The notes below the pieces were generated by a model. It was not told the origin of the DNA. It did not search any database and worked only from the letters and a program-made list of their open reading frames with translations. From assembly GCA_001823065.1 (NCBI GenBank), contig MHTJ01000003.1, positions 9,844 to 73,843 on the forward strand: 64,000 bases of DNA, read 5' to 3'. Below are positions 3,944 to 63,509 of this stretch, piece by piece (the stretch's first letter is position 1; each line of letters begins with the position of its first letter). This stretch comes from Candidatus Vogelbacteria bacterium RIFOXYD1_FULL_44_32. GTDB taxonomy: Bacteria; Patescibacteriota; Minisyncoccia; Phycocordibacterales; XYD1-FULL-46-19. The position numbers were made by a program, and so were the translations under genes.

Positions 3944-3948
3944 AAGCT

Positions 3949-46672: not shown

Positions 46673-47545
46673 CTAGAACAAAGCCGTGAGGATTGCGTTC
46701 AGACGGGAAGCGGGACCCCGTCCGGTTGGGTACTTTTCAAACGAAACGTGTCCGTCCATGTACAGGATGTTGGCGCCACCAGGAACGTGGTTGAAATCGT
46801 CGGCTTGGGCGTCGACGATATCCCAGAGGACGTAAACATTGCTCTGGGCCGCTGAGCTTGCCGCCGCGTTGTTGATGTCGGTAATGAAAAATCGCTCAAT
46901 GCCTTCGCGCAAGCGCAAGCCTTTGGTGGCTGCTCCACCCGCGTTGGTCCAAGACAAGTCGTTATCCGCGGCCGTTGCGTTTCCGCCACCGACAGCGGTG
47001 GCCACTCCAACTAAGGCGCCGACAAATCCGGCGTCGATATAGGTGCCAACGGCGTTGGCTAGGGTCATGGCACCGTCGTTGAAGTTGACCCCGGGTACTC
47101 CAATCAGGTCTTGGAAGGCCCAACCGGAATACACCAACGAAAGCGAATCTAATTCACAGGGGGCAAACGTCCCGCTGGGGCTGTTTCCCACCTGCCACCG
47201 ACCACCGGTGAAGCGGTCGATGCCGTCGGAATCGGACGGGCAGACAAACACCTTCAAATCAGCGATGTACTCGGGGAACACTGAGTCCCCGCGCACGATG
47301 AAGTCAAACCCGGGCGACTCGCAAAAGTCCCCGTCCCTCGTCTTCGCGGTTGGGAACTTCTCGCCCTTGCTCTCGTTCGCGTACATCTTGAGCACTATTC
47401 CGATCTGCTTGAGATTGTTGGCGCAGGACGCCCGACGGGCCGCTTCGCGCGCCCGGGCCAGTGCCGGCAACAGAATGGCCGCGAGGATGCCAATGATGGC
47501 GATGACCACCAACAGTTCGATCAGGGTAAATCCCTTTTTCTTCAT
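46673..47545 (-). CDS. DUF1559 / H-X9-DG protein with type IV pilin-like (prepilin-type) N-terminal cleavage/methylation domain
   Basis: N-terminus [49 protein letters not shown] and C-terminus [15 protein letters not shown]. This family is hugely expanded in Planctomycetota/Verrucomicrobiota. It has ~60% GC and a GAAGGAG SD. Confidence 0.85.
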
Positions 47546-47862: not shown

Positions 47863-48339
47863 ATGAACAATTACGCATTTATTGATGCTCAAAATGTCCA
47901 CCTAGGCATCAAATCTTTGGGTTGGGATTTGGACTGGGGAAAATTTAGAGTTTATCTGAGAGAAAAGTATAATATTTTCACGGCCTATATTTTCATTGGA
48001 TTTATCCAGACCAACCAAGATTTATATTCCGAGCTACAGAAAGCGGGTTATATTTTGATATTTAAACCAATTATTTTAGACAACAACGGAAAAGCTAAGG
48101 GAAATTGTGACGCGGATCTAGTATTGCACTCTCTTATAGAAAAAGATAAATATGACCAGGCGGTTATTGTTACCAGTGATGGAGATTTTTATTCCCTCGT
48201 TCGCTATTTATACGAGAACGGTAAACTGGCAATGGTGCTAAGTCCTTATGCCGAAACCTGCTCCAAATTGTTAAAAAGAGAAGCTAAAGATAAGATAAAC
48301 TATATGGACAATTTGAAGGGGAAAGTTGGGCAAAAATGA
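47863..48339 (+). CDS. NYN-domain (LabA/DUF88-like) protein, predicted RNase
   Basis: Motifs FIDAQNV, GNCDADLV and VIVTSDGDF are characteristic of the NYN/PIN-like family. Confidence 0.75.
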   Translation: MNNYAFIDAQNVHLGIKSLGWDLDWGKFRVYLREKYNIFTAYIFIGFIQTNQDLYSELQKAGYILIFKPIILDNNGKAKGNCDADLVLHSLIEKDKYDQAVIVTSDGDFYSLVRYLYENGKLAMVLSPYAETCSKLLKREAKDKINYMDNLKGKVGQK

Positions 48340-49026: not shown

Positions 49027-51204
49027 GTGTATATGTTCAAAAGTATCCTAAAGACCAATAAAACAAAAATCTTCACTCTACTCCTAGTAGCGGTGGTAGT
49101 TTTTGGTGCCTTTGGTTTACCCCTGACCACTTATGCCGACGACGGTAGTGCTACCGCTTCAGTGGATTCAACCTCGACTGCGGACACTGGTGATACTGGT
49201 AGTACAGACACCGGCAGTGCGGATGCTAGTACCAGCGAAAGTGCTTCTGGTTCAGCTGATACTACTGCCACCGGCTCAACCGAAGAGCCAACGGGCACTG
49301 GAGAGGGTGTATCGGACACTGACCAGAGTGTATCGGACACAGATTCAACCACCACTTCCGGTGAGGGTGAGACTGGTACCAGTGACCAGAATACTGGCGA
49401 TACTCAAACTGGGGATAACTCTACAGGGGAAGAAGAAACCAGTGATACTGGCACGACCACTACTCCGATCTTGCCTGATACAGAAAACACTGATACTGGC
49501 ACGACTACGGAGCCGACCTTACCTGGAGATAATGGGACCACGACGGTTCCTGTGCTTCCTGAAGGGGGTGATACTGGTACGACCACCGTGGCGACTACTA
49601 CCGAGCCAGTGACTGGTGGTGAAGACCAAGATGAACTTCCTTTAGTAGAGGGATATCTTCCTCCGGCGGAAGATGTGTCAGGTGAATATGATATGACTAC
49701 ATCCGAGGACGATGGGTTGCCAGCGGTAGCTGAAGATGTTTCCGCTGAATACAACTTCACCACTCTATCGGACACTCTGCCAGCGGTGGAAGAGGAGGTC
49801 TCCCTCGAATACAATTTTAATACACTTGAATCAGGAGGGGGAACTCTAGCTGAAGATGTTTCCGCTGAGTACCACTTCACGACTCTATCGGACAATAATC
49901 CTCCAGTTGACGAGGAGTATTCCTTGGAGTACCACTTCACCACTCTATCGGACACAAATCCTCCAGTGGATGAGGAACACTCCAATGAATATTTCTTTAC
50001 GACATTGTCCGATACAAATCCTTCTAGCGAGGAGTTTTCTAATGAATACAATTTTACCACCGACGATGATGGTGGTACTAATCCACCAAATGAGGAATAT
50101 TCTAATGAGTACCAATTTGGAACTACTGGTGGGGGTGGAACAGAAACGGAAGAAGAATATTCCAATGAGTACAGCTTTACCACCGACGATGATGGTGGTA
50201 CTAATCCACCAAATGAGGAATATTCTAACGAGTACCAATTTGGAACTACTGGTGGGGGTGGAACAGAAACGGAAGAAGAATATTCCAATGAGTACAGCTT
50301 TACTACCGATAACGGTGGCTGTACCGAAAATTGTGGTGGCGGAGGTGGAGGCGGTGGTGGCGGAGGCGGGCATAATCACAAAAAGAATAAAGTTTTGCCT
50401 AGTCCGTGCATGCCACTACTCTTGAAATATATTCGCTTGGGGGCCAACAACGATCCGTATGAAGTTTACAAACTGCAGTGGTTCTTGCGGACTTTTGAAA
50501 ATATGGAAATACCTTTGTCCGGAGTGTATGACCAGACCACATATGAAGCAGTAAAAATATTCCAAGCGCGCCATGCGACAGATGTGCTCCACAGCTGGGG
50601 TATTACTGAGCCGACCGGCTATGTCTATATCACCACCCAACTGATGGTAAATTATATTTACTGTGATATTGACGAGCCACTGCGTCTAGAATTATTGCTC
50701 GAGGAACAAACGGGCACTGGTTTTGGTTATACTAAATTACCAAGTAAAGGTGATGGTCTAGACTATCTGGTCTATCCGCCAAAAACCGAGCGTACGGTGT
50801 TTGAAGGTATCACTCTTGATTTACCCGCCGAAGCAGACAAAAAAGTTGGTAATATTTTTCAACTAGCCACCGCCGGTTTTATGGATTGGCTTCAGGGTAC
50901 CGAAGGTAAGTATTGGTGGTGGTTGATTATTTTGCCGTTGGTAGTGGTTGCTGGTTATCTATATCGGCGATTGAAAGTTGAACAAACTGACAAAGAATTA
51001 GCCCAAGAGGCGCAGGCCACAATTTTGGAAGCCGACCGCGAAATGACCGCTGAACCAATTGTCGGAGCCGAGGCGGAGACACCACATAAAGAAGATGTGC
51101 CCGATGAAATTATTGCCGAATACAATGCGGCTAATGGCGGACACCAAGCTGGCCAAGAAGCCATAGTTTTGCCAGGCGAGAGTCTAGAGGACCGAGAGAG
51201 TTAA
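49027..51204 (+). CDS. secreted acidic repeat protein with a PG_binding_1-like peptidoglycan-binding domain, a single TM helix and a cytoplasmic tail
   Basis: It has a signal peptide, a Thr/Asp/Glu/Gly-rich region with ~19-aa repeats (EEYSNEYxFTTLSDTNPP), and a G12 tract. The PG-binding region reads YEVYKLQWFL...SGVYDQTTYEAVKIFQARH and the TM segment is WWWLIILPLVVVAGYLY. Confidence 0.75.
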   Translation: MYMFKSILKTNKTKIFTLLLVAVVVFGAFGLPLTTYADDGSATASVDSTSTADTGDTGSTDTGSADASTSESASGSADTTATGSTEEPTGTGEGVSDTDQSVSDTDSTTTSGEGETGTSDQNTGDTQTGDNSTGEEETSDTGTTTTPILPDTENTDTGTTTEPTLPGDNGTTTVPVLPEGGDTGTTTVATTTEPVTGGEDQDELPLVEGYLPPAEDVSGEYDMTTSEDDGLPAVAEDVSAEYNFTTLSDTLPAVEEEVSLEYNFNTLESGGGTLAEDVSAEYHFTTLSDNNPPVDEEYSLEYHFTTLSDTNPPVDEEHSNEYFFTTLSDTNPSSEEFSNEYNFTTDDDGGTNPPNEEYSNEYQFGTTGGGGTETEEEYSNEYSFTTDDDGGTNPPNEEYSNEYQFGTTGGGGTETEEEYSNEYSFTTDNGGCTENCGGGGGGGGGGGGHNHKKNKVLPSPCMPLLLKYIRLGANNDPYEVYKLQWFLRTFENMEIPLSGVYDQTTYEAVKIFQARHATDVLHSWGITEPTGYVYITTQLMVNYIYCDIDEPLRLELLLEEQTGTGFGYTKLPSKGDGLDYLVYPPKTERTVFEGITLDLPAEADKKVGNIFQLATAGFMDWLQGTEGKYWWWLIILPLVVVAGYLYRRLKVEQTDKELAQEAQATILEADREMTAEPIVGAEAETPHKEDVPDEIIAEYNAANGGHQAGQEAIVLPGESLEDRES
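50050..50289 (+). repeat. 2 x 120-bp near-perfect tandem repeat inside the 49027 gene
   Basis: NEYNFTTDDDGGTNPPNEEYSNEYQFGTTGGGGTETEEEYS is encoded twice, with only 1-2 nt differences. Confidence 0.8.
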
Positions 51205-51285: not shown

Positions 51286-54200
51286 ATGGTGTCTAACCAC
51301 TCTAAGCGGTATAAAGGCCGATATTCATTTCTAACTTACATCAAGCCAGCTTTCCTAGTGCTGGCTTTTTTATTCTTTTTCCAATTAATCACGCCAGTCG
51401 CCCTGGCTCAAGACGGGACGGTGGAGGAATCATTGCCGCTTCCTCCGGCAGAGGAGCCAGCACCCGTTCTTCCGCCGGCCGGAGGTAGTATCAGCGACCC
51501 CGAAGCTCCAGCCGAACTGGCAGCAGTTGCGGAGGAAGACAACCTAGTCGCTTTGTCACTTACTGTCACCAGTCGTTCGCCGGTAGACTTAGGCAAGCCA
51601 CCAGTGGGAACGGGCTTTAAAATTTCGGCCGACACCTCGGACGGCTCGCTGGCATATGAGTTTCCCCTGACTCTCCCTCCTGGCCGCCAGGGTTTGGCCC
51701 CGGAGCTGTCTTTGCTCTATTCTAGCCGTCCTACTAGCGCTACCTCTTTATTTGGTTACGGTTGGACGTTGTCGATTCCTTTTATCGAACGAAAAAATCT
51801 TCATGGTTCGGATCGGCTGTACGAGGAGACAGATTTCACTTCTTCCTTAAGTGGTGACTTGGTGGCCTTAGGCGGCGAGACCTATCGCGCCAAAGTTGAT
51901 GAGGGGGAGTTTCTGGTTTATGTTTTCCGCGATAATGCTTGGACAGTGACAGACAAAAGCGGCATGGTCTACCGCTTCGGCCAGACCGCCGCCGCCCGTC
52001 AGGATGATGCTGATCATCCGACCCACGTCTACAAATGGATGCTCGAGGAAGTTCGCGATCTAAACGGAAATTATGTTACCTATCGTTATGCCAAAGATTC
52101 CAACCAAATTTATCCGGAATCAATAACTTATACTCACCATGCTGATACGGCTGGTCTATATTCAATACGCTTCATCAAAACTCCACGTGATTATCCCGTC
52201 ACCTCTTGGGCGGCAGGTTTTAAAGTTGTCACCAATCATATTATAAGTGAAATAGTTGTTGAAGTCGGAGGAGGGTGGACGAGGAAGTATTCTTTCGCCT
52301 ATACCCAGCGAGACAACCAGAGTCGGTCATTGCTAACCTCAATCATCGAATGGGGAAATGACGGTTCAAAAATCATCTCTTTACCACCGACCACCTTTAC
52401 TTATCAAGTATCAGCTAAGGCCTGGGTTGAAAACAGCCGTTGGACTTTGCCAGTGTCTCTTGTCGGAGACAACTACGAAGACACGGGCGCGCGAATTGCC
52501 GACATTAATGGCGATGCTTTACCCGATATTATAACTAATAATAATGGCTCCTTTCTTAACACTGGTTACGGTGACTGGGACAGAGCCGGCCCCGAGTGGA
52601 CCCTGCCTGTGGCGTTGACGAAACCAGATGTGGTCCACCCTGGAAGTATGTTGATTGACGTTAATGGTGATGGATTGATTGATATTGCCCAAAGTCGGGA
52701 TGGTGATGAGGACCCGGATATTGTCTATTTTAATACTGGCCACGGCTGGGTGACATCGTCGACCACGGTTCCGGTCTATTTTGCGACGCGAAACGGCAGT
52801 GATAACGGAGTCCGGGTTGCCGACATTAATGGCGACGGTCTGCCTGATTTGTTGCGTTTTCATGCTGGCGACGGCGCATTGGGTAATCGTGTTTATATCA
52901 ATAATGGTTCCGGCTGGAGCGAAGATCGGTCCTGGGTTTTACCGGAGCCGACCCTTGCCGGCGACGGCCAGACTGATTTGGGCACGCGTTTTGGCGACGT
53001 TAATGGTGATGGCCTAGTCGATATCCTTCGCAAAGATGAAAGCGTTAGTAAAGTCTATTTCAATACTGGTCACGGTTGGGAACTGGCCTCTGCTTGGGTT
53101 ATTACCGCCGAGGAATTTATGAACGACGGTGGTGATCGAGGCACGCGAGTTTATGATGTCAATAGTGACGGATTTGACGATCTTGTGAATAGTCAGGCGC
53201 CAGGTGATGTTGGTGTTTATCTCAATACGGGTAGTCCTTCTAACGACTGGACTTTAGACATGAGCTGGCGTATTCCTTTCAGGTTGGTTGATTATCTTCG
53301 CGACGGGGGCCGTTACGTTGATCCGGGAACGCGGTTGGTGGATTTAAACGCTGACGGACTCCTGGACATACTTCAGTCACGATCAAGTGGCCCGAACCAG
53401 GTTTATTTTCAAGCTGGCCCACAGCCTGATCTCCTTCAGAGTGTGACATTTAGTCGGGGCGGTGGGGCGAACATTACCTATCTCTCCAGCACCTTTTATC
53501 ATCCAAATGGTCTTGGTCGTCTCAATCAAAAGTTGCCGTTTCCGATGATAACGGTTAGTACGATTACCGAGCACGATGGCCTCGGCGGTAGTGCCACTAC
53601 CGAATATAGTTATAAAAATGGCGAATATTATCACGAGAACATTCTTGACCGAAAATTTGCCGGCTTTGGCCAAGTGGAAAAAACCGATGCCATGGGCAAT
53701 ATTACTAAAACCTATTTTCACCAAGGTAATGATTCTGATTCTGGTCGCGGGGAATTTGAAGATCATTTTAGTAAAATTGGGCGAATTTATCGAGTAGAAA
53801 AATATGATTCAGCTGGCAATTTATTGACCCAAGAAATTAGTCGGTGGGGGAGGGTGGCCTTGGCTGTCAGCGCTGGCCTTGATCGATCTTTTGTTCCATT
53901 GTTAAACAATATAAAAATGACTTACGATGGCGACAATAGTCACCGTGATGTGGCTGAAGCCTATACTTATGATAATTTTGGTAATTTAGTTCGGGCCGAA
54001 AATTATGGTGAAGTGGTGGCTAGTGACGATGGAAGTTTTAGTGATCTGGGTTCTGATAAAACAACCAAGATTTTGAGTTATGTCACAAACTCAACAACGG
54101 GCATATTGGGGTTAGTAAGGATGGAAGAATTGAGAAATAACAATGGAGCCAATGTGGCGGTCAAAAAATATTATTATGATAATCTTCCCATTGGGGCAGT

Positions 54201-57192
54201 TCAACGGGGCAATTTAACCAAAACGGAAAGTTGGGTTGGGGGCACTAAATGGGTGACGACGGCCAATAGTTATGACAACCAGGGTTTACTTAAAACAAGT
54301 ACTGATGGGCGAGGATATTCCACCACTTATTTATACGACGAATTTGGCTTGTACCCTAGTACAATATCCAATTCTCTAGGGCAGGTCACGTCCTATCAAT
54401 ATGATTATGCTTCAGGGCAGGTCACTAAAGAAACTGACCCTAATGGTTTTGCTAAAATTAAAATATACGATGGGTTGGGGCGAGTGGTTACTGAAAAAGA
54501 GCAAACAGGTGGGGTGGCCGAGGTGGTGACAAAAGAAACATTTTATCGTGACGATATTGTACCTAAACTTATTCAGACCAAAAAATTTCTTCTCTTAAAT
54601 TTATCTAACGAGGTCTATAGTTATTTTGATGGTCTGGGTCGACTAGTCGAAGAGAGGACGCAAATGGAAAATGCCGGCGACTATGCTGTGACCTCGCTTA
54701 AATACAACCCAAAAGGAGAATTATTAGCTAAGACTTTGCCCTACCTGGAAACTGGTTCAAGTTATACTGCACCAACCTTTCCCGTTGGTCTTACCACTAA
54801 TTTTACTTACGACTCTCTTGGTCGGGCTAAAACGGTGAGTGATTCGCTGGGCACGACCAATTACTCTTACACCGATTGGGTGACTACAATTACCGACCCG
54901 CTTGGCAAAGTCAAAAAATATACGACCGACGCTTATGGCCGACTAATCTTGGTTGATGAGGGGTATGGCAAGGGCTTTTATCATACTCGGTATTATTATA
55001 GTCCCACGGGTAATTTAATCAGGATTATGGATGCACTGAATAATATCCGTGATTTTACTTATGATAACCTGGGGCGTCGTCTGTCGGCTCAAGACTTGCA
55101 TCAGTCGAGCGATACTAGTTTTGGTCTGTGGTCTTATACCTATGACGATAATAATAACCTGTTTTCCAGGAAAGATCCGCTCGGTCAAACTGTAAATTAT
55201 ACTTACGATGGCCTAAATCGGCCATTAATAGAAGACTATCTCGGTCGAGCCAATCCGGAGGTAAAATATACTTATGACAATTGTATAAATGGAGTGGGGC
55301 GCTTGTGTAAGGTGGCTATAGTTGGACTGTCTAAAAATTATCAATATACTCCGCGTGGTGAAGTACGGGTGGACAACAGAGTTTATAATCAAGCTTCTTA
55401 CACTACAGTCAATGCTTACGATTTAGCTGGCAATATAGTATCTATTCGTTTACCCGACAACAGTCAAATTATTTATGAATATAATTTAGTTGGAAAAGTT
55501 GAAAACATATCACGCCGTGATATTTTCAATAGCTCGGCCATTATCCCCGTTGTTTCCAATTTTGATTATAGCCCTCATGGCTTACCTGTTTATCAGCAAA
55601 ATGCTGATGGCATAAAAAATATATTTACCTATGACCCGACCAAAAGTTATCGTCTGCAGACAAAGACAACCAAAAAAGATAATATCAATTATCAATTAGT
55701 TAGTTATGAATATGATTCAGTTGGTAATATTACCAAACTCATTGATACCTCTCCTAACCTATTAGCCAAGACAGTTAGTTATACTTATGACGATCTCTAC
55801 CGACTGACCAAGGCCGTAGCGACCAACGCCAGTTCGACTTTATATTCCCAAGATTTTCTTTATGGCCCAACGGGGAACATTTTGAAAGGGTCGATGGGTA
55901 TATATGCTTACAGTGGTATCGATTTTACTTCACCTCAAGCTGTAACCTCAATTGCTTCTTCTACTTACAGCTATGATAAAAACGGCAATATGTTAACCGC
56001 CCCTAGCGCCACTTACGCTTGGGACTACAATAATCGCTTAGTTAAGAGTGTGGCCGGAACCACTACCACCACCTATGAATATGACAACGAAGGCCAACGA
56101 ATCTCTCAAAAAACTGGAGCCAGTGCTACACTGTATATTAGCCCCAACTACGATTTGACCGGTTCGGTCATTGATAAACATGTCTATGCTGGTGACCAGT
56201 TAGTCGCTACTCTCCGTACTCAAAACGGCACCACTAGCCCTTATTACACCCACTCCGACCACCTGTCCGGCACTAGTCTGGTAACTGACCAAAATAGTAA
56301 CGTGATGCAGAGCATAGACTATTTACCTTATGGTGCCAAAAGAATAAGTTCTGGAACGGATGTTTCTCAAAGAGAGTTCATTGGTCAAATTTATGATGAA
56401 TTGACTTCGCTAAGCTATCTGAATGCACGCTACTACGATGGGTCGAGAGGACAATTTCTTTCCCAAGATCCAATGTTTTGGCAACTTCCATCGACCTTGC
56501 TCGTAGATCCTCAACAGCTAAATTCTTATAGCTACGCAAGAAACAATCCTCTAATATATAAAGATCCACTAGGTCTATACAACATAAAAACTGGAGCTGT
56601 TGAAAAGGGTGATAATCTGTCTAAGATTAGAAATTTGATTAATGGGGCAAATGGAACAAGCTACTCTGTTTCTCAACTTGCGAAGCTAAATAATATATCA
56701 AATCCAGATCGTATTTATGTTGGTCAAACAATCAAACCGAATAACTTGGTCCCAGATATTACAAGATCCCTGAATAGTGTCAATCAATCACATGGAGTGC
56801 AAGCCCAGGGTCCGGTTGTTGCAGGTTCTGGTTCTACCAATTCTACTCCAGCGGCCAAGGGTATAGGGTCGGTTGAATTTGGATGGAATTTTAGGGAAGG
56901 AGGTAAATGGGATTTGAAGTCGCAGGGTTCAAATGTAGAAGGAGGAGTATTCTGCCAGAAGTCAGCTTGTGGAGGACAGAGAGCAACAAGTTATATTTAC
57001 AATTCTCAAGAAGTCTCGGGTGACGCACCAGGAAATATTCATTATGGTTATGTTGGCAAAAGAGCAGAGTATAGTGAAAGCACACTCTTATTCTTCGGTG
57101 GAGCAGTTCAAACTATTACACACCCAGGTCAATTTGGAGACCCTAGTTCTGACAAAACTTACATCATGCAGGGTTATGGGTTAAACTATTAA
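51286..57192 (+). CDS. RHS/YD-repeat polymorphic toxin with SpvB-like N-terminal domain and FG-GAP beta-propeller (Tc-toxin TcB-TcC-like fusion), C-terminal LysM plus unknown toxin domain
   Basis: Signal peptide; SpvB motif GSLAYEFPLTLPPGRQGLAPELSLLYSS; six DxNGDGxxD FG-GAP repeats; more than 20 YD repeats (YxYDxxGRL); RHS core end DPQQLNSYSYARNNPLIYKDPLGL; and then a LysM (GDNLSKIRNL...IYVGQTIKP) plus a ~110-aa Cys-containing domain. Confidence 0.9.
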   Translation: MVSNHSKRYKGRYSFLTYIKPAFLVLAFLFFFQLITPVALAQDGTVEESLPLPPAEEPAPVLPPAGGSISDPEAPAELAAVAEEDNLVALSLTVTSRSPVDLGKPPVGTGFKISADTSDGSLAYEFPLTLPPGRQGLAPELSLLYSSRPTSATSLFGYGWTLSIPFIERKNLHGSDRLYEETDFTSSLSGDLVALGGETYRAKVDEGEFLVYVFRDNAWTVTDKSGMVYRFGQTAAARQDDADHPTHVYKWMLEEVRDLNGNYVTYRYAKDSNQIYPESITYTHHADTAGLYSIRFIKTPRDYPVTSWAAGFKVVTNHIISEIVVEVGGGWTRKYSFAYTQRDNQSRSLLTSIIEWGNDGSKIISLPPTTFTYQVSAKAWVENSRWTLPVSLVGDNYEDTGARIADINGDALPDIITNNNGSFLNTGYGDWDRAGPEWTLPVALTKPDVVHPGSMLIDVNGDGLIDIAQSRDGDEDPDIVYFNTGHGWVTSSTTVPVYFATRNGSDNGVRVADINGDGLPDLLRFHAGDGALGNRVYINNGSGWSEDRSWVLPEPTLAGDGQTDLGTRFGDVNGDGLVDILRKDESVSKVYFNTGHGWELASAWVITAEEFMNDGGDRGTRVYDVNSDGFDDLVNSQAPGDVGVYLNTGSPSNDWTLDMSWRIPFRLVDYLRDGGRYVDPGTRLVDLNADGLLDILQSRSSGPNQVYFQAGPQPDLLQSVTFSRGGGANITYLSSTFYHPNGLGRLNQKLPFPMITVSTITEHDGLGGSATTEYSYKNGEYYHENILDRKFAGFGQVEKTDAMGNITKTYFHQGNDSDSGRGEFEDHFSKIGRIYRVEKYDSAGNLLTQEISRWGRVALAVSAGLDRSFVPLLNNIKMTYDGDNSHRDVAEAYTYDNFGNLVRAENYGEVVASDDGSFSDLGSDKTTKILSYVTNSTTGILGLVRMEELRNNNGANVAVKKYYYDNLPIGAVQRGNLTKTESWVGGTKWVTTANSYDNQGLLKTSTDGRGYSTTYLYDEFGLYPSTISNSLGQVTSYQYDYASGQVTKETDPNGFAKIKIYDGLGRVVTEKEQTGGVAEVVTKETFYRDDIVPKLIQTKKFLLLNLSNEVYSYFDGLGRLVEERTQMENAGDYAVTSLKYNPKGELLAKTLPYLETGSSYTAPTFPVGLTTNFTYDSLGRAKTVSDSLGTTNYSYTDWVTTITDPLGKVKKYTTDAYGRLILVDEGYGKGFYHTRYYYSPTGNLIRIMDALNNIRDFTYDNLGRRLSAQDLHQSSDTSFGLWSYTYDDNNNLFSRKDPLGQTVNYTYDGLNRPLIEDYLGRANPEVKYTYDNCINGVGRLCKVAIVGLSKNYQYTPRGEVRVDNRVYNQASYTTVNAYDLAGNIVSIRLPDNSQIIYEYNLVGKVENISRRDIFNSSAIIPVVSNFDYSPHGLPVYQQNADGIKNIFTYDPTKSYRLQTKTTKKDNINYQLVSYEYDSVGNITKLIDTSPNLLAKTVSYTYDDLYRLTKAVATNASSTLYSQDFLYGPTGNILKGSMGIYAYSGIDFTSPQAVTSIASSTYSYDKNGNMLTAPSATYAWDYNNRLVKSVAGTTTTTYEYDNEGQRISQKTGASATLYISPNYDLTGSVIDKHVYAGDQLVATLRTQNGTTSPYYTHSDHLSGTSLVTDQNSNVMQSIDYLPYGAKRISSGTDVSQREFIGQIYDELTSLSYLNARYYDGSRGQFLSQDPMFWQLPSTLLVDPQQLNSYSYARNNPLIYKDPLGLYNIKTGAVEKGDNLSKIRNLINGANGTSYSVSQLAKLNNISNPDRIYVGQTIKPNNLVPDITRSLNSVNQSHGVQAQGPVVAGSGSTNSTPAAKGIGSVEFGWNFREGGKWDLKSQGSNVEGGVFCQKSACGGQRATSYIYNSQEVSGDAPGNIHYGYVGKRAEYSESTLLFFGGAVQTITHPGQFGDPSSDKTYIMQGYGLNY
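52501..53375 (+). other. FG-GAP/integrin-like beta-propeller repeat region of the RHS protein
   Basis: Repeats DINGDALPDI, DVNGDGLIDI, DINGDGLPDL, DVNGDGLVDI, DVNSDGFDDL and DLNADGLLDI. Confidence 0.7.
56579..57189 (+). other. hypervariable C-terminal toxin module (CT1) downstream of the RHS DPLGL autoproteolysis motif; LysM at ~56590-56730
   Basis: Sequence similarity to the orphan copies stops exactly after YKDP(L/T)G. Confidence 0.7.
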
Positions 57193-57201
57193 TAAATTGA
57201 G

Positions 57202-57777
57202 ATGAAAAAATATTCATTCAAAAAAATAATTACTATTTTAGCTGTTGCACTAGTACTGGTAATTCTAATTTACTATATTCTTGGTGAGTTAGGAGGAAAT
57301 GCTTTCCGTATCCGAGCAGGTTTGTTGATTCATAAAGAAGAATTTAATGAATTTGTAGACAAGTTCCTTAATCAAAATTCTATAAAAAATATTCAAACGT
57401 CTGTTGGTTTCTTTAGCACTACGGAAAGTATAAATAGTTGTAGCCGCTATCCTGAAGAAGGCGATACACCTTGGACTTGTAGTGAGGGGGAATACCCAAA
57501 TATCGTATCAATAAATCTTGCGAGTATTAATGCAGTTTTAGAACATGAACATATCCCGAATGAAGAATACCAATACTTTGTTGATTTTATGGAAAGATAT
57601 AAATTCAACGGTGTGGGTAAGAATAATAATGACAGATCTGTCGAAATAGAAGATAAACTAAAAGGCTTGAGATATTACGAACAACAAAATTCAAGTAAGC
57701 TTACTGAAAATAATGAGTATCTTTTTGTTAAAAAAATTAATGAACATTGGTTTTACTATGTGAGAGATTGGAATTAG
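57202..57777 (+). CDS. putative cognate immunity protein for CT1 (N-terminal TM anchor)
   Basis: A small ORF 10 nt downstream of the toxin gene. Both position and size are typical of RHS immunity genes. Confidence 0.5.
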   Translation: MKKYSFKKIITILAVALVLVILIYYILGELGGNAFRIRAGLLIHKEEFNEFVDKFLNQNSIKNIQTSVGFFSTTESINSCSRYPEEGDTPWTCSEGEYPNIVSINLASINAVLEHEHIPNEEYQYFVDFMERYKFNGVGKNNNDRSVEIEDKLKGLRYYEQQNSSKLTENNEYLFVKKINEHWFYYVRDWN

Positions 57778-57789
57778 GATAAATAGAGA

Positions 57790-58881
57790 TTGAAATTTGA
57801 CAACGAAGGCCAACGAATCTCTCAAAAAACTGGAGCCAGTGCTAAACTATATATTAGCCCCAACTACGATTTGACTGGTTCGGTCATTGATAAACACATC
57901 TACGCTGGTGACCAGTTGGTTGCCACCCTGCGTACCCAAAACGGCACCACTAGCTCTTATTACACCCACTCTGACCACTTGTCTGGCACTAGTCTGGTGA
58001 CTGACCAAAATAGTGTGATTACTGAACTAATCGACTATTACCCCTACGGCGATATTCGCCTAGACCAAAAAACCTCCACCTACAATGAAAGCAAGAAATA
58101 TATTGGTCAGGAGTATGATGAGGCTACTGGTCTTTCTTATATGAATGCCCGTTATCAAAATGGAAAAACAAGTCGATTTTTGAGCCAGGATCCTGTGTTT
58201 TGGGAAATCGGAAATGAGGGAGAGATCAAGCAGAAGACGGGGCTCGGTCTACAAGAACTCCTAGCTGATCCTCAGCAATTTAACAGCTATTCTTACGCTC
58301 GGAACAATCCGATTACATATAAAGATCCAACAGGTAATCTTACTTGGGGGGCTCTCTTAAATCATCCTATTGGTAGCATACAAAGTGCGACAAATTGGGG
58401 ATTATTTTCTCTCGGCGGAAACATTATGAATAAACCATTTGCAGCCTCTCTTTTGAGACATTCAGCTTCCCTTAATCCTTCTGCAGAACTTAATATAGAT
58501 TCTGGTAATCAAAAGCAATATGGAAATCCAGTTGACCAAGTAATGCAGACAGATCAGTACAAGAACTACATTAAAGATACAATCCAGAGAGCGGAGAGCG
58601 GTAAGATGAAAAACTCAACTCACTTTGAGTTTGAAAATAGAAGTGATTTGTACTACGCCTTACATGGTGCAAATATTGAATCACAAATTACTCAAGAAAA
58701 TGGGGAATGGGTAGTAAATAGCACTGTGTCAGATAAATATGATTTTAATAAACCTAATCCTCAAACAGAGAAGGGTAGAGTAATTAAAATTCCTGCAAGT
58801 AATGCTTATAAAGCTCAAAGTAAGGGTATCCTAAGTAACTATAATGTAAAGATTAAAATTAGTGATAGAATTAAAAAATAA
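57790..58881 (+). CDS. orphan RHS C-terminal fragment (rhs core remnant plus alternative toxin domain CT2), TTG start
   Basis: 57796-58020 is ~90% identical at the DNA level to 56086-56310 of the main rhs gene. It retains DPQQFNSYSYARNNPITYKDPTG and then a novel ~185-aa C-terminus. Confidence 0.8.
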   Translation: MKFDNEGQRISQKTGASAKLYISPNYDLTGSVIDKHIYAGDQLVATLRTQNGTTSSYYTHSDHLSGTSLVTDQNSVITELIDYYPYGDIRLDQKTSTYNESKKYIGQEYDEATGLSYMNARYQNGKTSRFLSQDPVFWEIGNEGEIKQKTGLGLQELLADPQQFNSYSYARNNPITYKDPTGNLTWGALLNHPIGSIQSATNWGLFSLGGNIMNKPFAASLLRHSASLNPSAELNIDSGNQKQYGNPVDQVMQTDQYKNYIKDTIQRAESGKMKNSTHFEFENRSDLYYALHGANIESQITQENGEWVVNSTVSDKYDFNKPNPQTEKGRVIKIPASNAYKAQSKGILSNYNVKIKISDRIKK

Positions 58882-58886
58882 ATATC

Positions 58887-59396
58887 ATGAAGAGAAAACT
58901 GCTAATTATTGTAACTAGTGTCACATTAATTATTTTGGGTGGTGCCATGTTTCTGTACTACTTTTGGTTTGTTGCTCCAGAAAAAAAGATTGCATTGGAG
59001 TGTCAAAATTTTGTTCCAAGTTGGTTGGATTTTATTGAATGTTCAGGAGTAGTTGCTATCAATGATGGGTGGGATATGGATTATATTTCACTCAAGGATC
59101 ATGTTCATGACTATGAAATTGCACGTGTCTATGATCAGAAGCAATACTTGTTTGTTGAGAATAAGCTATTTGTAATCAATCAAAAGTATATTGAAAATAG
59201 TGCCTCAGATAACGTTGAGGTTACTTATTATCATAAGTTGTTCCAAAATGGAAAATTGATTGAGAACTCTTACGGTAGTATTTCTGATATCCCGACCTAT
59301 TTAATTGTCGACACTAAAACGGGGGAAGTAAAAGCATATAAAGATCTGATGGAAGCTTCTGAAGCAGAAAAGAAGTATTTTTCTGAAATAGAATAA
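58887..59396 (+). CDS. putative immunity protein for CT2 (N-terminal TM helix)
   Basis: Immediately follows the orphan CT2 with a 5-nt gap. Confidence 0.5.
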   Translation: MKRKLLIIVTSVTLIILGGAMFLYYFWFVAPEKKIALECQNFVPSWLDFIECSGVVAINDGWDMDYISLKDHVHDYEIARVYDQKQYLFVENKLFVINQKYIENSASDNVEVTYYHKLFQNGKLIENSYGSISDIPTYLIVDTKTGEVKAYKDLMEASEAEKKYFSEIE

Positions 59397-59408
59397 ATAT
59401 CTCTACAA

Positions 59409-59723
59409 ATGCCTCAGGTAATACCATTAGAAATATTGAATAATTGTGTCGTAAATTTAAGACAAGAAACTAGCGCTGGTGATTTTAAGGTGGGAACAGG
59501 AATTCTTATTGGAAAAGATAACAAACTTTTACTCCTTACAGCTGAACATGTCGCACGGGATATGAAGAATGATGAGAAGCTTATCTTAAGAGTTGATAAT
59601 AATTTACCAATAAGCTTAGAAATTATTCAAGTTTGTAAGTTAGATAATTCAGGAAATATACCATATATAATGGTTCAAATGATCATGCTAAAAGATATGG
59701 AGAAAGAATTAATGCTCAATTGA
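59409..59723 (+). CDS. short protein resembling the N-terminal fragment of a trypsin-like serine peptidase (GTGILIG...LLLTAEHVA)
   Basis: The catalytic-His-like motif TAEHV is present but the ORF is only 104 aa. It may be a gene remnant. Confidence 0.3.
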   Translation: MPQVIPLEILNNCVVNLRQETSAGDFKVGTGILIGKDNKLLLLTAEHVARDMKNDEKLILRVDNNLPISLEIIQVCKLDNSGNIPYIMVQMIMLKDMEKELMLN

Positions 59724-59804
59724 ATAACCCAAACTATAATAAGAACATCGTTGCTAATCAATTGAAAAAATTTATTAAATCATTTAATAAATCAAAGTAA
59801 AAAT

Positions 59805-60143
59805 ATGAAAAATAAAGCGGTTAAAAATCTATATTTAATAACAGGATTATTTTCAATCGTTCCTTTCTTTATTTATTACTGGGAAGCGATGCGTGGGAGG
59901 TTGCCAGATCCAGATGTATGGTTTATGGATTCCAATCACGGTCCTTGGAGATATGAATTACAGGGATTTCTAGTCCTTAATCCGATCCTGTTATTGCTAC
60001 TTATCACAGGAATATTATTCTTGAAGAACGTATTTAAGCTTAAAGAAAATAAAGATGCTGCATTTTATTTGGGATCTTTGATTGTCATTCAAATTCTAGT
60101 TCTTTTACTACAGCTTTTTGTGATGGGATGGACTATAGATTAG
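59805..60143 (+). CDS. small membrane protein (3 TM)
   Basis: A hydrophobic ORF within the cassette array. Confidence 0.4.
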   Translation: MKNKAVKNLYLITGLFSIVPFFIYYWEAMRGRLPDPDVWFMDSNHGPWRYELQGFLVLNPILLLLLITGILFLKNVFKLKENKDAAFYLGSLIVIQILVLLLQLFVMGWTID

Positions 60144-60822
60144 TCCCATTAAAGACATTTAAATCAACGTTCCCTTTTATTCCATCAATACTCCCTCTGG
60201 GATTATATTGCCAAATTTCCCAATCACCGATTTTTTTTGTATCAGGTTTTGAAAAAATATCTCTTATCCATATCTTTTCTTTCTCAAATTCTGGGTAGAG
60301 ATAATCTTCATAAAACTCGTAAGTAGTATAAAGAATTGGCTGTTTATTATAGTGACTCGAAATAACTCTTAGGTAGATTCTAAGTCCATTTACAAATTCC
60401 TCTTTTGGGGGTCTTTTTTTACTGTTACCGACATATTCCAGATCGACAACTGGTGGAAGCTGATACTTATCTAGTGGTACAGTTTTGATAAAATTTTCTG
60501 CTTGGATCTTGCCAGAGTGGGCTAAGGAATAGAAGTGGTACGCTCCAGTCGGAATATTATTTTTTATTGCATTATTCCAATTGAACATAAATTTAGCATC
60601 TCTTAAGTCATTAGCTTCTGTAGCTTTTATGTAAGCAAACCCTACGTCATCTTTTGAGACAGCTTGCCAATCAATGTCTCCCTGATAGTGTGATACGTCT
60701 ATACCCCTTATAGGGTATTTACTTCGATCCGGGTTGACTAGCCAAATCTTTCCCTGAATAAATAAAAAAAGTGATATGACAAATGCCAACAACAAAAAAA
60801 ATAGGAGTAATTTTTTACACAT
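60133..60822 (-). CDS. secreted GH25-family lysozyme (muramidase)
   Basis: It has a signal peptide. Motifs GIDVSHYQGDIDWQAV, GFAYIKATE and GAYHF form the GH25 signature. Confidence 0.8.
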   Translation of the reverse strand: MCKKLLLFFLLLAFVISLFLFIQGKIWLVNPDRSKYPIRGIDVSHYQGDIDWQAVSKDDVGFAYIKATEANDLRDAKFMFNWNNAIKNNIPTGAYHFYSLAHSGKIQAENFIKTVPLDKYQLPPVVDLEYVGNSKKRPPKEEFVNGLRIYLRVISSHYNKQPILYTTYEFYEDYLYPEFEKEKIWIRDIFSKPDTKKIGDWEIWQYNPRGSIDGIKGNVDLNVFNGTNL

Positions 60823-60851
60823 CGTCTATATGTTAATATTAAAAGCAAAAT

Positions 60852-61793
60852 ATGAAAAGCCCCTATTACACCCACTCTGACCACTTGTCTGGCACTAGTC
60901 TGGTAACTGACCAAAGCAGTGTGATTACTGAACTAATCGACTATTACCCATACGGCGATATTCGCCTAGACCAAAAAACCTCCACCTACAATGAAAGCAA
61001 GAAATATATTGGTCAGGAGTATGATGAGGCTACTGGTCTTTCTTATATGAATGCCCGTTATCAAAATGGAAAAATCGGGCGGTTTTTGAGTCAGGATCCA
61101 GTATTTTGGGAGGTAGGACAAACCGATGAAGGTAAAGCCTCCCTAATGAATCCGCAAGCGCAAAATAGCTACAGCTATGCGGGTAATAATCCTATAACTA
61201 ACAAAGATCCGAGTGGACGTTTCTGGTGGGTTGGGTTCTATGATTGGAGCGGTTATGAGGGAATGAGTGGTGTGGCTATGAAAGCGGGTGAGGTCTTAGG
61301 AGGTCACTCGCGTGCTATGAATGCTATTCAACAGAATCAGAGCACGATTAATTCAGCGAGTTCAAAATACGGTGTCGATCCGGCCTTAACTAGTGCAATC
61401 ATAAGGGAAGAGCAATCACATCTTCTGCCTGGCGAAGGAATGAAAGATGCCGCGTTCCCAGACTCTCAACTGGCGGGATATGATGGAGGTGTGGGTATTA
61501 TGCAGGTAAGCGGTCGTGTAGGAAAAGACTTCGGTGGCTACACAAAAGCCGAGCTTGCTCGAAATCCTCAGAAGAATATTGATTCAGGGACGGCGTACTT
61601 GGAAAATATAAGTAGCTCTAGAAATACGACTAATCCTGCCACTATTGGAACAGCGTATAATGGCGCAGGCGCATACGGACAACGCATCCAATCACAGATG
61701 AATAATCCAAATTACAATACAAACGTTGTAGTTTATGGACTTCAGAAACTTGTTAAATCATTAAATTCTTATGTTAAAAGTCTTAAAAAATAA
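60852..61793 (+). CDS. second orphan RHS C-terminal fragment with lytic-transglycosylase (SLT)-like toxin domain (CT3)
   Basis: 60862-61110 is ~97% identical to 57957-58205. After NPITNKDPSG it carries AIIREEQSHL...GGVGIMQVSG...TAYL...AYNGAGAYG (E...GxMQ...AYNxG, SLT family 1-like). Confidence 0.75.
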   Translation: MKSPYYTHSDHLSGTSLVTDQSSVITELIDYYPYGDIRLDQKTSTYNESKKYIGQEYDEATGLSYMNARYQNGKIGRFLSQDPVFWEVGQTDEGKASLMNPQAQNSYSYAGNNPITNKDPSGRFWWVGFYDWSGYEGMSGVAMKAGEVLGGHSRAMNAIQQNQSTINSASSKYGVDPALTSAIIREEQSHLLPGEGMKDAAFPDSQLAGYDGGVGIMQVSGRVGKDFGGYTKAELARNPQKNIDSGTAYLENISSSRNTTNPATIGTAYNGAGAYGQRIQSQMNNPNYNTNVVVYGLQKLVKSLNSYVKSLKK

Positions 61794-61799
61794 AATGTC

Positions 61800-62285
61800 A
61801 TGAAAAGAAATACTTTAATTTTGTTAGGGATTCTTGGCTCAGTTGTTCTAGTAATTGCCTTATATGTAGGAGGCTTCATCTGGATTGTGCCGAAGATGCA
61901 CGATGAAACCCTAACTAAGTTCTCAAACCAAATCTTTTCTGTGCAATTACCCGCTGATACTACCCAGGTCGATTCAATAAGTGTAATTGGCCAGCAATTT
62001 GCGAATGGAAATCATTGTGATTATCTGGCGGCGAGGTTGCTTGAGACATCGCTCCAAAAAGAAAAGCTAGAAAATGACTTTGAAGAGAACTACCAAGGAA
62101 CATCAAAACTACAATTTATCTGGCTGGATGAAAGTAATGCCTACACTGATGACATCTTTGACTCTTCAAAGATTTACTCATTGGATGATTGGCTAGACCA
62201 ACACGCACAAACTTCAAAAGCTGATGTAGTTGTCTATCTTTTTGAAGGCCATATGACATCATCATTTGATTATCGTTGTCGCTAG
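61800..62285 (+). CDS. putative immunity protein for CT3 (N-terminal TM anchor)
   Basis: Lies 6 nt downstream of CT3. Confidence 0.5.
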   Translation: MKRNTLILLGILGSVVLVIALYVGGFIWIVPKMHDETLTKFSNQIFSVQLPADTTQVDSISVIGQQFANGNHCDYLAARLLETSLQKEKLENDFEENYQGTSKLQFIWLDESNAYTDDIFDSSKIYSLDDWLDQHAQTSKADVVVYLFEGHMTSSFDYRCR

Positions 62286-62451
62286 GTAGCTGTCGTATTC
62301 ACCTCTACTTATCACTGCAGTTGAAGCATATGGTCTTCTTTCTATCTTTACTGAGAGGGTAAGGTTGATGAGGTAGGAGCTTACTTTGAGTAATTCTTTA
62401 TCTCGGTTGGTCTATATTGATTTTTTGTAGGATCTAGTAATGTGACTTTAT

Positions 62452-62649
62452 ATGAAAAATAACATTACTATAAAGTTGTTGATTGTAGGTATAATAATGC
62501 TTCTTTGTTATGTTGCTGGTTTGTTTGTGTATGATGTAGTATCCGATCGCGACCCAGTAGTAAAATATGTCTCTAATTCGCGCGAATCAGGGAATATAAA
62601 AAAGTGGGTGGATGATGGGTGGATTAAGGCGGGGCGGACAATTTTATAA
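62452..62649 (+). CDS. small membrane protein (65 aa)
   Basis: Has a single TM helix. Support is weak. Confidence 0.3.
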   Translation: MKNNITIKLLIVGIIMLLCYVAGLFVYDVVSDRDPVVKYVSNSRESGNIKKWVDDGWIKAGRTIL

Positions 62650-62699
62650 ATATGAAATGGACAAATGACATTTTAGGGAGGGCTTGGTAGGATTGGGAG

Positions 62700-63509
62700 A
62701 TGAGAAATATTTTGTTGGTTGGTGGCGGTTTAATTTTACTGACCATATTGGTTTCTTTTGTATTATCCGCAGGGGTGGAGACGGGAGTTCAATCTAAGAC
62801 CGTAGCGATATTAGCGACTAGTACGGCAAAAATAGCGATTGAGGCGACATCAACTGGCCCTGCGTTTTTAGTAGTGCCGAAAGTATTAAACAGCTATCAA
62901 GTGGTAAAAGTAGTGGATGGGGACACGGTAGTGGTAAATATAAATGGCAAGACAGAAACTTTGCGCCTGATTGGGATAAATACGCCTGAGACAGTGGACC
63001 CGCGGAAAGCGGTGGAATGTTTTGGTAAAGAAGCCTCGGCCAAAGCCAAAAGTCTGCTTGCTGGGCAAACGGTACGGCTAGAAGCCGACCCAAGCCAAGG
63101 TGAACGGGATAAATATAACCGGTTGTTGTGCTATGTTTTTTTAGCTGACGGGACTAATTTTAATAAACTAATGATAAGCCAGGGCTTTGCTTACGAGTAC
63201 ACCTACAACTTGCCCTACAAATATCAGGCGGAATTTAAATTAGCGGAAAGGGAAGCGCGTGAACTAAAAAAAGGTTTGTGGGCTGATGGGGTGTGCGAAG
63301 ATAAAATCGTGACCAAAGAGACCCCCGCCGCGCAAAGCGCGGCGGGGGTGGGGGAAAATTATATTTGTGACCGCAATGTTTATAATTGCACAAACTTTAA
63401 GACTCAAACTGAAGCTCAATCAGTTTTTACAGCTTGTGGTGGTCCAATGGCTGACCCCCACAAATTGGACAGTGATGGCGATGGGGTGGTGTGCGAGAGT
63501 TTAAAATAA
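62700..63509 (+). CDS. secreted thermonuclease (SNase-family) with C-terminal Excalibur calcium-binding domain
   Basis: N-terminal TM/signal segment. The SNase core reads [29 protein letters not shown]...[13 protein letters not shown]. The C-terminal [10 protein letters not shown] is the Excalibur motif. Confidence 0.85.

Follow-up and report, generated by a model that had tools for sequence, protein, structure and literature searches.

Gene content of the RHS locus

Here we describe a putative rearrangement hotspot (RHS) toxin locus in a 64,000-nucleotide stretch (the window) of contig MHTJ01000003.1 from Candidatus Vogelbacteria bacterium RIFOXYD1_FULL_44_32, a tiny-genome bacterium of the Candidate Phyla Radiation (CPR) from Rifle aquifer groundwater. 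The scaffold is 495 kb long, the ORF with the SLT domain is 100% identical to an NCBI protein from this bacterium, and the gene order across the region is the same in the ENA and JGI assemblies. The locus comprises one TcB/TcC-type RHS carrier gene ending in a C-terminal tip (CT1), two 5′-truncated orphan modules bearing the tips CT2 and CT3, and a decayed fourth module (Table 1). The three tips, an Ntox44, a predicted colicin M (ColM)-like and an SLT domain, are mutually unrelated, and a small gene lies directly after each of them (Imm1, Imm2 and Imm3).

Domains were assigned by profile searches against Pfam and NCBIfam, and solved relatives were sought by sequence and profile searches of the Protein Data Bank (PDB). 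Export and membrane anchoring were predicted only from charge and a 19-residue hydrophobicity scan. A YD/RHS shell with a core ending in DPxGx, unrelated tips each with a partner gene, and orphan modules with homology tracts are the features of RHS polymorphic toxins. We conclude, with a probability of about 0.7, that the region is such a locus, in which one carrier is accompanied by swappable warhead modules, each a tip with its immunity gene.

Table 1. Features of the RHS locus and its surroundings, and Ntox44 loci elsewhere. Positions are those of the window, except in rows that name another locus.
Feature	Position	Strand	Description
Giant open reading frame (ORF)	38526-45899	+	2457 aa; two genes upstream of RHS gene
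Type IV pilin-like protein	46673-47545	-	N_methyl + DUF1559; between giant ORF and acidic repeat protein
NYN-domain protein	47863-48339	+	Between giant ORF and acidic repeat protein
Acidic repeat protein	49027-51204	+	725 aa; 138 D+E versus 28 K+R; signal peptide; C-terminal transmembrane (TM) segment
RHS carrier	51286-57192	+	1968 aa; signal peptide, SpvB, FG-GAP propeller, TcdB_toxin_midN, YD/RHS shell, core, CT1
CT1	56578-57192	+	LysM (nt 56599-56736), ~50-aa linker, Ntox44 (nt 56887-57183)
Imm1	57202-57777	+	191 aa; candidate immunity for CT1; single N-in TM anchor (hydrophobic aa 3-35), conserved Cys pair
Cassette 2	57790-58881	+	Core fragment + CT2
Cassette 2 core fragment	57790-58335	+	5′-truncated RHS core; tracts to main gene and to cassette 3
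CT2	58336-58881	+	Family without Pfam entry; colicin M/DUF3289-like predicted fold, DKYDFN motif; predicted lipid II-degrading enzyme
Imm2	58887-59396	+	169 aa; candidate immunity for CT2; N-terminal TM anchor, conserved Cys pair
Decayed module	59409-59800	+	104-aa ORF + out-of-frame SLT-type tail (59648-59800)
Small ORF	59409-59723	+	104 aa
orf112	59805-60143	+	112-aa membrane protein, three hydrophobic segments
GH25 muramidase	60133-60822	-	N-terminal signal anchor; catalytic D...DxE motifs
Cassette 3	60852-61793	+	Core fragment + CT3
Cassette 3 core fragment	60852-61217	+	Shorter 5′-truncated RHS core; tract to cassette 2
CT3	61218-61793	+	GH23/SLT lytic transglycosylase domain (by sequence)
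Imm3	61800-62285	+	161 aa; candidate immunity for CT3; N-terminal TM anchor
Small TM ORF	62452-62649	+	65 aa
SNase-Excalibur	62700-63509	+	Membrane-anchored or secreted thermonuclease; C-terminal Excalibur Ca-binding domain
Ntox44, window and L096			LysM-Ntox44 tip on RHS; next gene: TM-anchored protein
Ntox44, L091	3502-5611		RHS fragment with Ntox44; next gene: 208-aa multi-TM protein
Ntox44, L098 (C. botulinum plasmid NZ_CP063819.1)	3296-4699		2x PG_binding_1 + Ntox44; next gene: DUF5412 lipoprotein
Ntox44, L099 (Pseudomonas)	2501-3299		Standalone Ntox44; next gene: signal-peptide protein
Ntox44, L100	359-1149		RHS fragment with Ntox44; next gene: DUF5412 lipoprotein

The carrier and its own tip

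The carrier starts with a predicted Sec-type signal peptide (hydrophobic segment at residues 13-43, cleavage near the ALA/QD junction at about residue 41). It continues with matches to SpvB (E 4.4e-22), FG-GAP_3 (E 1.6e-19), TcdB_toxin_midN (E 5.1e-18) and RHS_repeat (E 5.5e-37), so TcB-like and TcC-like parts are both present; its solved relatives are Rhs (PDB 8h8a) and the N-terminus of YenB. Carriers of the TcdB/TcaC type are listed among the trafficking modes of polymorphic toxins by Zhang 2012 (PMC3482391). The Rhs-associated core (TIGR03696) was recognized in the main gene (E 1.4e-15), in cassette 2 (1.5e-16) and in cassette 3 (6.5e-18), where it ends in KDPLGL (at nt 56577), KDPTGN and KDPSGR, respectively. 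In these sequence-level tests, no TcA-type Pfam domain or PDB sequence relative was found in the neighbouring 2457-aa and 725-aa proteins; the 2457-aa protein, considered as a TcA candidate, had no Pfam match of any kind at E ≤ 0.01.

Directly past the core, residues 1772-1817 form a LysM domain (E 5.9e-7, 29.8 bits against a cutoff of 20.9). An earlier annotation of this DNA, made without database searches (the original prediction), had proposed that CT1 starts with LysM, and in this it was right; it had missed the catalytic part, an Ntox44 domain (PF15607) at residues 1868-1966 (E 3.3e-12, 47.1 bits against a cutoff of 24, profile positions 5-101 of 104). The motifs DxK (WDLK), GNxxxG (GNIHYG) and DxxxD (DPSSD), listed for Ntox44 by Zhang 2012 (PMC3482391), are all found in CT1. 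A PDB sequence search with CT1 gave no match for the toxin part. A C-terminus 71% identical to CT1 was found on another RHS protein, in locus L096. In that locus (2570-4618) the tip sits on a 682-aa protein with a signal peptide, in which the SpvB/FG-GAP front half is missing; the same warhead therefore serves different carriers.

Orphan cassettes and their homology tracts

The ORFs of cassettes 2 and 3 start inside the RHS core, opening with MKFDNEGQRISQKTG and MKSPYYTHSDHLSG, respectively, both of which are internal to the main protein. The main gene is joined to cassette 2 by a tract of 221 nt with 92% identity (56078-56298 versus 57794-58014), and cassette 2 to cassette 3 by one of 261 nt with 93% identity (57952-58212 versus 60858-61118). 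The repeats form a chain from the main gene through cassette 2 to cassette 3, and a sliding identity profile shows little shared directly between the two ends of this chain. The GC content is 0.42-0.45 in the core fragments and 0.29-0.33 in the tip ends, the immunity genes and the GH25 gene. An Rhs main gene followed by orphan tip/immunity modules with recombination tracts is a standard arrangement, and the locus is textbook in layout rather than the uncharacterized kind of assembly that it had been taken for.

The CT2 and CT3 fragments have neither a signal peptide nor a shell, which leaves CT1 as the only tip that the locus could deploy in its present form. CT2 and CT3 are stored warheads rather than deployed ones. 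The secretion signals expected of the hydrolases were found in part: GH25 and SNase have hydrophobic N-termini, but the two orphans do not have a signal peptide.

Cassette 3 and the remains of a second SLT module

The cassette 3 ORF matches the Pfam family SLT (E 5.4e-9, 36.1 bits against a cutoff of 21.3). CT3 resembles MltC/EmtA in both NCBIfam and the PDB, the catalytic domain of MltC being aligned at E 1e-6. Its motifs are intact: the Glu of IIREEQS falls on the catalytic Glu of MltC, and GIMQV and AYNGAG are in place. By its sequence, CT3 is a bona fide GH23 lytic transglycosylase domain, in agreement with the earlier assignment. A total of 16 homologs were found, mostly annotated as RHS-associated.

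Within the decayed module, nt 59648-59800 encode FRKYTIYNGSNDHAKRYGERINAQLNNPNYNKNIVANQLKKFIKSFNKSK (TIYNG...YGERINAQLNNPNYN) in a frame unlike that of the 104-aa ORF, and represent the last ~47 codons of a second SLT-type CT. This remnant aligns with the C-terminal 40 residues of CT3, the AYNG motif among them (local alignment score 116), and was also recovered by tblastx against L006 and L008. The 104-aa ORF itself contains a weak trypsin-like N-terminal fragment (Trypsin_2, E 0.02). The SLT remnant ends 5 nt before orf112, which thereby occupies the immunity position and is probably an orphan immunity gene.

In other loci, a gene for an IS200/IS605-type Y1 transposase is found immediately upstream of 5′-truncated SLT-tip fragments (L006 7300-7971, L007 395-1066 and L091 1801-2472). 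This suggests that insertion of such elements truncates SLT-tip cassettes, or that the elements mobilize them.

CT2 represents a family resembling colicin M

The close homologs of CT2 are few, and each is found on an RHS core or is a truncated fragment of such a tip. A profile search of 1.84 billion representatives extended the family to 147 proteins (E ≤ 1e-3). Of the 108 CT2 domains analysed, 105 are at the very C-terminus of their protein, and the carriers of the family include SpvB/FG-GAP/RHS proteins of 2000-3200 aa, a Laminin_G-RHS protein and a Peptidase_C39 protein. No Pfam family, including Colicin_M (PF14859) and DUF3289, was matched by any of 55 family members at E ≤ 1, and PDB sequence and profile searches with CT2 and its family matched only the Rhs core part and nothing in the toxin part.

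A structural model of CT2 was built with AlphaFold2 from a 55-sequence alignment (predicted local distance difference test (pLDDT) 89.8, predicted template modelling score (pTM) 0.84); a model from a 5-sequence alignment (pLDDT 47.5) was set aside. In a fold search the best matches of the model were DUF3289 and colicin M, with modest fold scores. By hhalign, CT2 NGEWVVNSTVSDKYDFNK aligned with ColM NGSWTYNGVVRSYDDKYDFNA (E 0.005 for that single comparison). The DKYDFN motif of CT2 is identical to ColM residues 226-231, with which it aligns together with the preceding hairpin, and maps to D226-Y228-D229; the ColM sequence was checked against PDB 2xmx. Across the family, the pattern D-x-Y-[DN]-[FY] is strongly kept (D in 106, Y in 104 and D/N in 107 of 108 domains).

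The lipid II cleavage typical of colicin M yields undecaprenol and 1-pyrophospho-MurNAc-peptide-GlcNAc. Colicin M requires the motif DxYDx5HR (PMC5821083). Its His-Arg pair is absent from CT2 and is not conserved in the CT2 family, which has an invariant Asp104 and an HSL..NP motif of its own. DUF3289 has been described as a colicin M homolog that acts in the periplasm and has a membrane-bound immunity protein (PMC11148199, PMC12135965). Taken together, a colicin M/DUF3289-like fold of CT2 is reasonably supported by the model. CT2 belongs to a new sequence family and probably degrades lipid II, the chemistry being that suggested by the proteins which it resembles in fold.

Candidate immunity proteins

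Each of the proteins Imm1, Imm2 and Imm3 starts with basic residues and continues into a single stretch of high hydrophobicity, which predicts that the bulk of the protein faces outside. Each contains a Cys pair, and this pair is kept in the homologs found for Imm1 and Imm2. The pairings are conserved as well: proteins 53-54% identical to Imm2 are encoded directly after CT2 homologs in two unrelated contigs (L093 and L095), and a protein 39% identical to Imm1 is encoded directly after the CT1 homolog in L096, so that CT1/Imm1 and CT2/Imm2 recur in other metagenomes. An outward-facing, membrane-anchored protector is the device used against colicin M (Cmi) and TelC (TipC); the anchored partners of the window would fit targets in the wall compartment.

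The SLT tips of L006, L008, L089 and L091 are followed by a conserved TM-anchored protein of 122-126 aa. Neither Imm3 nor orf112 showed similarity to this protein, and both were rejected as members of its family.

In L093 (2223-4857), the orphan CT2/Imm2 pair lies beside an AAA_15/OLD-TOPRIM protein and a UvrD-like helicase, which resemble a Gabija pair, and an N6/N4 methyltransferase. This neighbourhood is defence-island-like, and no full-length RHS gene is nearby.

Partners of Ntox44 toxins

Both Pfam and Zhang 2012 place Ntox44 among presumed nucleases. The sole characterized member, TseR (PAAR-Ntox44), is reported in a 2026 review (PMC13577199) to be a divalent-cation-dependent RNase. Gene context is at odds with the 'RNase' label of the family. 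In each of the five loci sampled from CPR, Clostridium and Pseudomonas, the gene that follows the Ntox44 toxin codes for a membrane protein or an exported one; this is a small and unsystematic sample in which the window and L096 count as one (the profile search returned mostly short standalone proteins). Peptidoglycan-binding fusions are present in two of the five Ntox44 proteins, LysM in the window/L096 and two PG_binding_1 domains in L098, and the partner is a DUF5412 lipoprotein with a lipobox in L098 and L100. As the partners are exported or membrane proteins in every locus and such fusions occur, CT1 may also act outside the cytoplasm.

The GH25 and SNase genes

The presence of a GH25 muramidase on the opposite strand within the array, with a predicted export signal, was confirmed (E 7.3e-41, 140.9 bits, profile positions 1-180 of 180). 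The catalytic motifs GIDVS and VVDLE are present, and a basic N-terminus precedes a single hydrophobic segment that would serve as an anchor. With a GC content of 0.33 the gene is cassette-like; it is convergent with orf112, the 3′ ends overlapping by 11 nt. L006, from a Saccharibacterium, shows the same order: a fragment of an SLT tip (70% identical) is accompanied by its TM partner and by a GH25 fragment in convergent orientation (58% identical). From its low GC and this convergent arrangement beside the SLT module of L006, GH25 appears to have travelled with the cassettes and likely shares some history with them.

The putatively secreted SNase/Excalibur nuclease at the end of the block was likewise recovered (SNase, E 7.7e-25, 87.9 bits; Excalibur, E 1.7e-5, 25.5 bits against a cutoff of 22). 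Its basic N-terminus and a hydrophobic segment within residues 1-30 predict export. It reads RLIGINTPE where staphylococcal nuclease has RLLLVDTPE, an Asn thus replacing the Ca-ligand Asp40, and has seven Cys residues, several of them in the Excalibur part.

Proposed mechanism and alternative explanations

We propose that the Sec-exported cocoon, a fusion of TcB and TcC, would enclose its own C-terminal tip CT1 (LysM plus Ntox44), which, to judge from solved RHS and Tc structures, would be cut off after the DPLGL motif. CT2, probably cleaving lipid II, and CT3, acting on glycan strands, would be stored downstream, each with its antidote. Because the stored modules start with truncated core copies that carry the 92-93% identical tracts, tip swapping seems possible: by analogy with the Rhs loci of Salmonella and E. 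coli and with the orphans of contact-dependent inhibition (CDI) systems, homologous recombination through these 220-260-nt tracts could transfer a new tip, together with its immunity gene, to the carrier. Each partner, anchored N-in and bearing its Cys pair, would be presented on the outside of the membrane, the side that holds lipid II and peptidoglycan. A monoderm-like cell without type VI secretion system (T6SS), type VII secretion system (T7SS) or detected TcA could not inject proteins, and its warheads would for this reason have targets reachable from outside the membrane. An exported carrier, stored envelope-directed tips and anchored antidotes are, overall, the best explanation of the locus, and it is this reading that carries the probability given above.

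Several points weigh against it. Export is predicted from hydrophobicity alone, and a cocoon of ~220 kDa would have to open at the target cell. Imm3 is unrelated to the 122-126-aa partner of the other SLT tips, and an SLT tip on a full-length RHS protein was not found among the 16 CT3 homologs. Finally, the RNase activity reported for TseR (PMC13577199) would make CT1 cytoplasm-acting. The idea of cell-wall-directed payloads is supported, and extended, by the GH23 domain of CT3, the decayed SLT tail, the predicted ColM-like CT2 and the anchored partners, but not by the catalytic domain of CT1, which is an Ntox44.

The original prediction joined the RHS tips, GH25, the upstream peptidoglycan-binding protein and SNase into one arsenal, co-deployed by an epibiotic CPR cell to open the envelope of its host and harvest nucleic acids. 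In favour of this, export or surface anchoring is predicted for all of them, the GH25 gene sits within the array, has the same low GC and recurs by an SLT module in a Saccharibacterium, and external micrococcal-type nucleases have been proposed to scavenge nucleotides for CPR, which lack nucleotide synthesis (PMC6031116). However, CT2 and CT3 are truncated orphans without secretion signals, and GH25 lies on the other strand. In GTDB genomes the nearest full-length relatives of GH25, 40-45% identical, come from Clostridia and Bacteroidales. Homologs of RHS, SLT, SNase or the immunity genes were absent within 10 kb of the best 80 relatives kept from the scan of those genomes, for which reason GH25 was rejected as a general RHS companion. 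SNase has the GC of resident genes (0.43-0.47) and lies at the array edge beside housekeeping genes; it is most simply a resident nucleic-acid scavenging enzyme that abuts the array by chance. The upstream protein does match PG_binding_1, but below the Pfam cutoff (21.3 versus 23 bits), and was rejected as a conserved system component since it has no homology to the PG_binding_1 proteins found near L006 and L093. Dedicated immunity genes, moreover, imply that the toxins can hit producer-like cells, and point at least as much to competition with kin or neighbours as to attack on a host. We found no evidence that GH25 or SNase, tied to the array by adjacency only, plays a functional part in the toxin system, and we regard a coordinated arsenal as improbable. 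Even more improbable, in our judgement, is that GH25 and orf112, with its three TM segments, are what is left of a phage-type lysis pair (endolysin and holin) inserted in the array and unrelated to the toxins. GH25 does match phage endolysin families (phrog_291, E 6.6e-32), although these matches are generic, and orf112 fits a class I holin in size and TM count. Yet the two genes are convergent with overlapping 3′ ends, orf112 occupies the immunity position behind the SLT-tail remnant, no further phage genes are nearby, and the closest full-length GH25 relatives in Clostridia are chromosomal genes; orf112 had no PHROG or Pfam holin match and was rejected as a holin.

The site of action of CT1 is where an alternative has most to say. 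CT1 may be a cytoplasm-acting RNase, as the activity given for TseR and the grouping of Ntox44 with presumed nucleases would have it, with LysM only tethering the released toxin to peptidoglycan and Imm1 either intercepting it at the surface before import or not being an immunity protein at all. Against this stand the exported or membrane partners in five of five loci and the two proteins fused to peptidoglycan-binding modules, and a Sec-secreted RHS protein has no evident import machinery; we consider an RNase acting in the cytoplasm possible, if somewhat doubtful. The exported carrier with envelope-directed tips could also be taken further than we have done. Ntox44 would then be not, or not only, a cytoplasmic RNase but a toxin of the cell-wall compartment, the whole array would be specialized for targets accessible from outside the membrane, injection being impossible for an RHS cocoon that a single-membrane cell secretes by Sec, and CT2 would found a new, widespread RHS-borne branch of the ColM/DUF3289 lipid II hydrolases with its own immunity family. 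This extension is offered tentatively, as a possibility that may well not hold in full.

Relation to known toxin systems

Like the Rhs/YD loci of E. coli, Salmonella and Dickeya and WapA of B. subtilis, the window locus has a YD shell, a core ending in DPxGx, low-GC tips, a variable C-terminal toxin with an adjacent immunity gene, and downstream 5′-truncated core fragments with alternative tips. It shares with WapA the use of Sec export and not a T6SS. In contrast to these loci, its carrier has a TcB-like front half (SpvB, FG-GAP, TcdB_midN) and its host belongs to the CPR. Well-studied Rhs arrays mostly have nuclease tips, whereas the readable tips of the window (CT2, CT3 and the SLT remnant) point at the envelope and all partners are membrane-anchored. 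The order of SpvB-like N-terminus, beta-propeller, TcdB middle and RHS cocoon is that of the toxin complex (Tc) BC sub-complex (TcdB2-TccC3, YenB-YenC2), whose tip is released autoproteolytically. Here, in contrast, B and C form a single Sec-exported polypeptide, no TcA was detected by sequence tests, and the tips are predicted to be antibacterial, with candidate immunity genes.

CT2 resembles the colicin M family and the DUF3289 T6SS effectors, lipid II hydrolases with the immunity proteins Cmi, PmiA or DUF943, in predicted fold, in the hairpin followed by D-K-Y-D-F-N, in its position as a polymorphic-toxin tip and in a membrane-anchored partner facing the extracytoplasmic side. It differs from them in the absence of a profile match and of the HR pair, in its own D104 and HSL..NP, and in being carried by RHS instead of a TonB-dependent bacteriocin or a T6SS spike. 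CT3 shares the GH23 catalytic Glu, GLMQ and AYNGG-type motifs and an exported partner with the antibacterial T6SS effectors Tge/Tse3, a SleB-like T6SS effector (PMC11148199) and the housekeeping enzymes MltC/EmtA. Unlike these glycan-cleaving proteins, it is attached to an RHS core; the CT3 type has so far been seen only on orphan-sized fragments, and its immunity families vary by locus. TelC of Streptococcus intermedius, an LXG/T7SS lipid II phosphatase, acts in the wall zone and has an extracytoplasmic immunity protein (PMC5555719, PMC6193138). It too is a polymorphic toxin of a single-membrane bacterium directed against lipid II, but its fold, carrier and secretion route are different.

RHS arrays with orphans, TcB/TcC-type carriers, and wall or lipid II toxins with exported immunity (TelC, DUF3289, Tge) are thus already known. 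Polymorphic toxins have also been reported to include ColM domains (PMC5821083), and one Saccharibacterium is on record with an RHS toxin next to an immunity gene (PMC6031116). The novelty lies in the combination: a CPR array with seemingly uniform envelope-directed tips, an unannotated ColM-like tip family with its partner, and SLT as an RHS tip. The abundant CPR bacteria (Patescibacteria) are mostly uncultured, and little is known of their ways of attacking other cells or feeding on them. The locus offers concrete candidate enzymes, namely a lytic transglycosylase tip, a probable lipid II hydrolase tip with its partner and a LysM-Ntox44 tip. It also suggests a rule by which secreted RHS toxins of single-membrane bacteria without injection machinery may favour warheads that act outside the target membrane. 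Two by-products are an un-annotated toxin family of ~150 representatives that resembles colicin M, and evidence from gene context that the Ntox44 'RNase' label may not fit all members.

Flanks of the array

A promoter and terminator scan gave counts at the level of shuffled sequence and was not informative. The acidic protein encoded upstream of the carrier contains tandem EEYSNEY-x-FTT-like repeats and a run of 13 Gly. The 65-aa ORF between Imm3 and SNase, with one TM segment, could be what remains of another orphan immunity gene, or else spurious. After the array, beyond the end of the window, come housekeeping genes, including those for BipA and a pseudouridine synthase.

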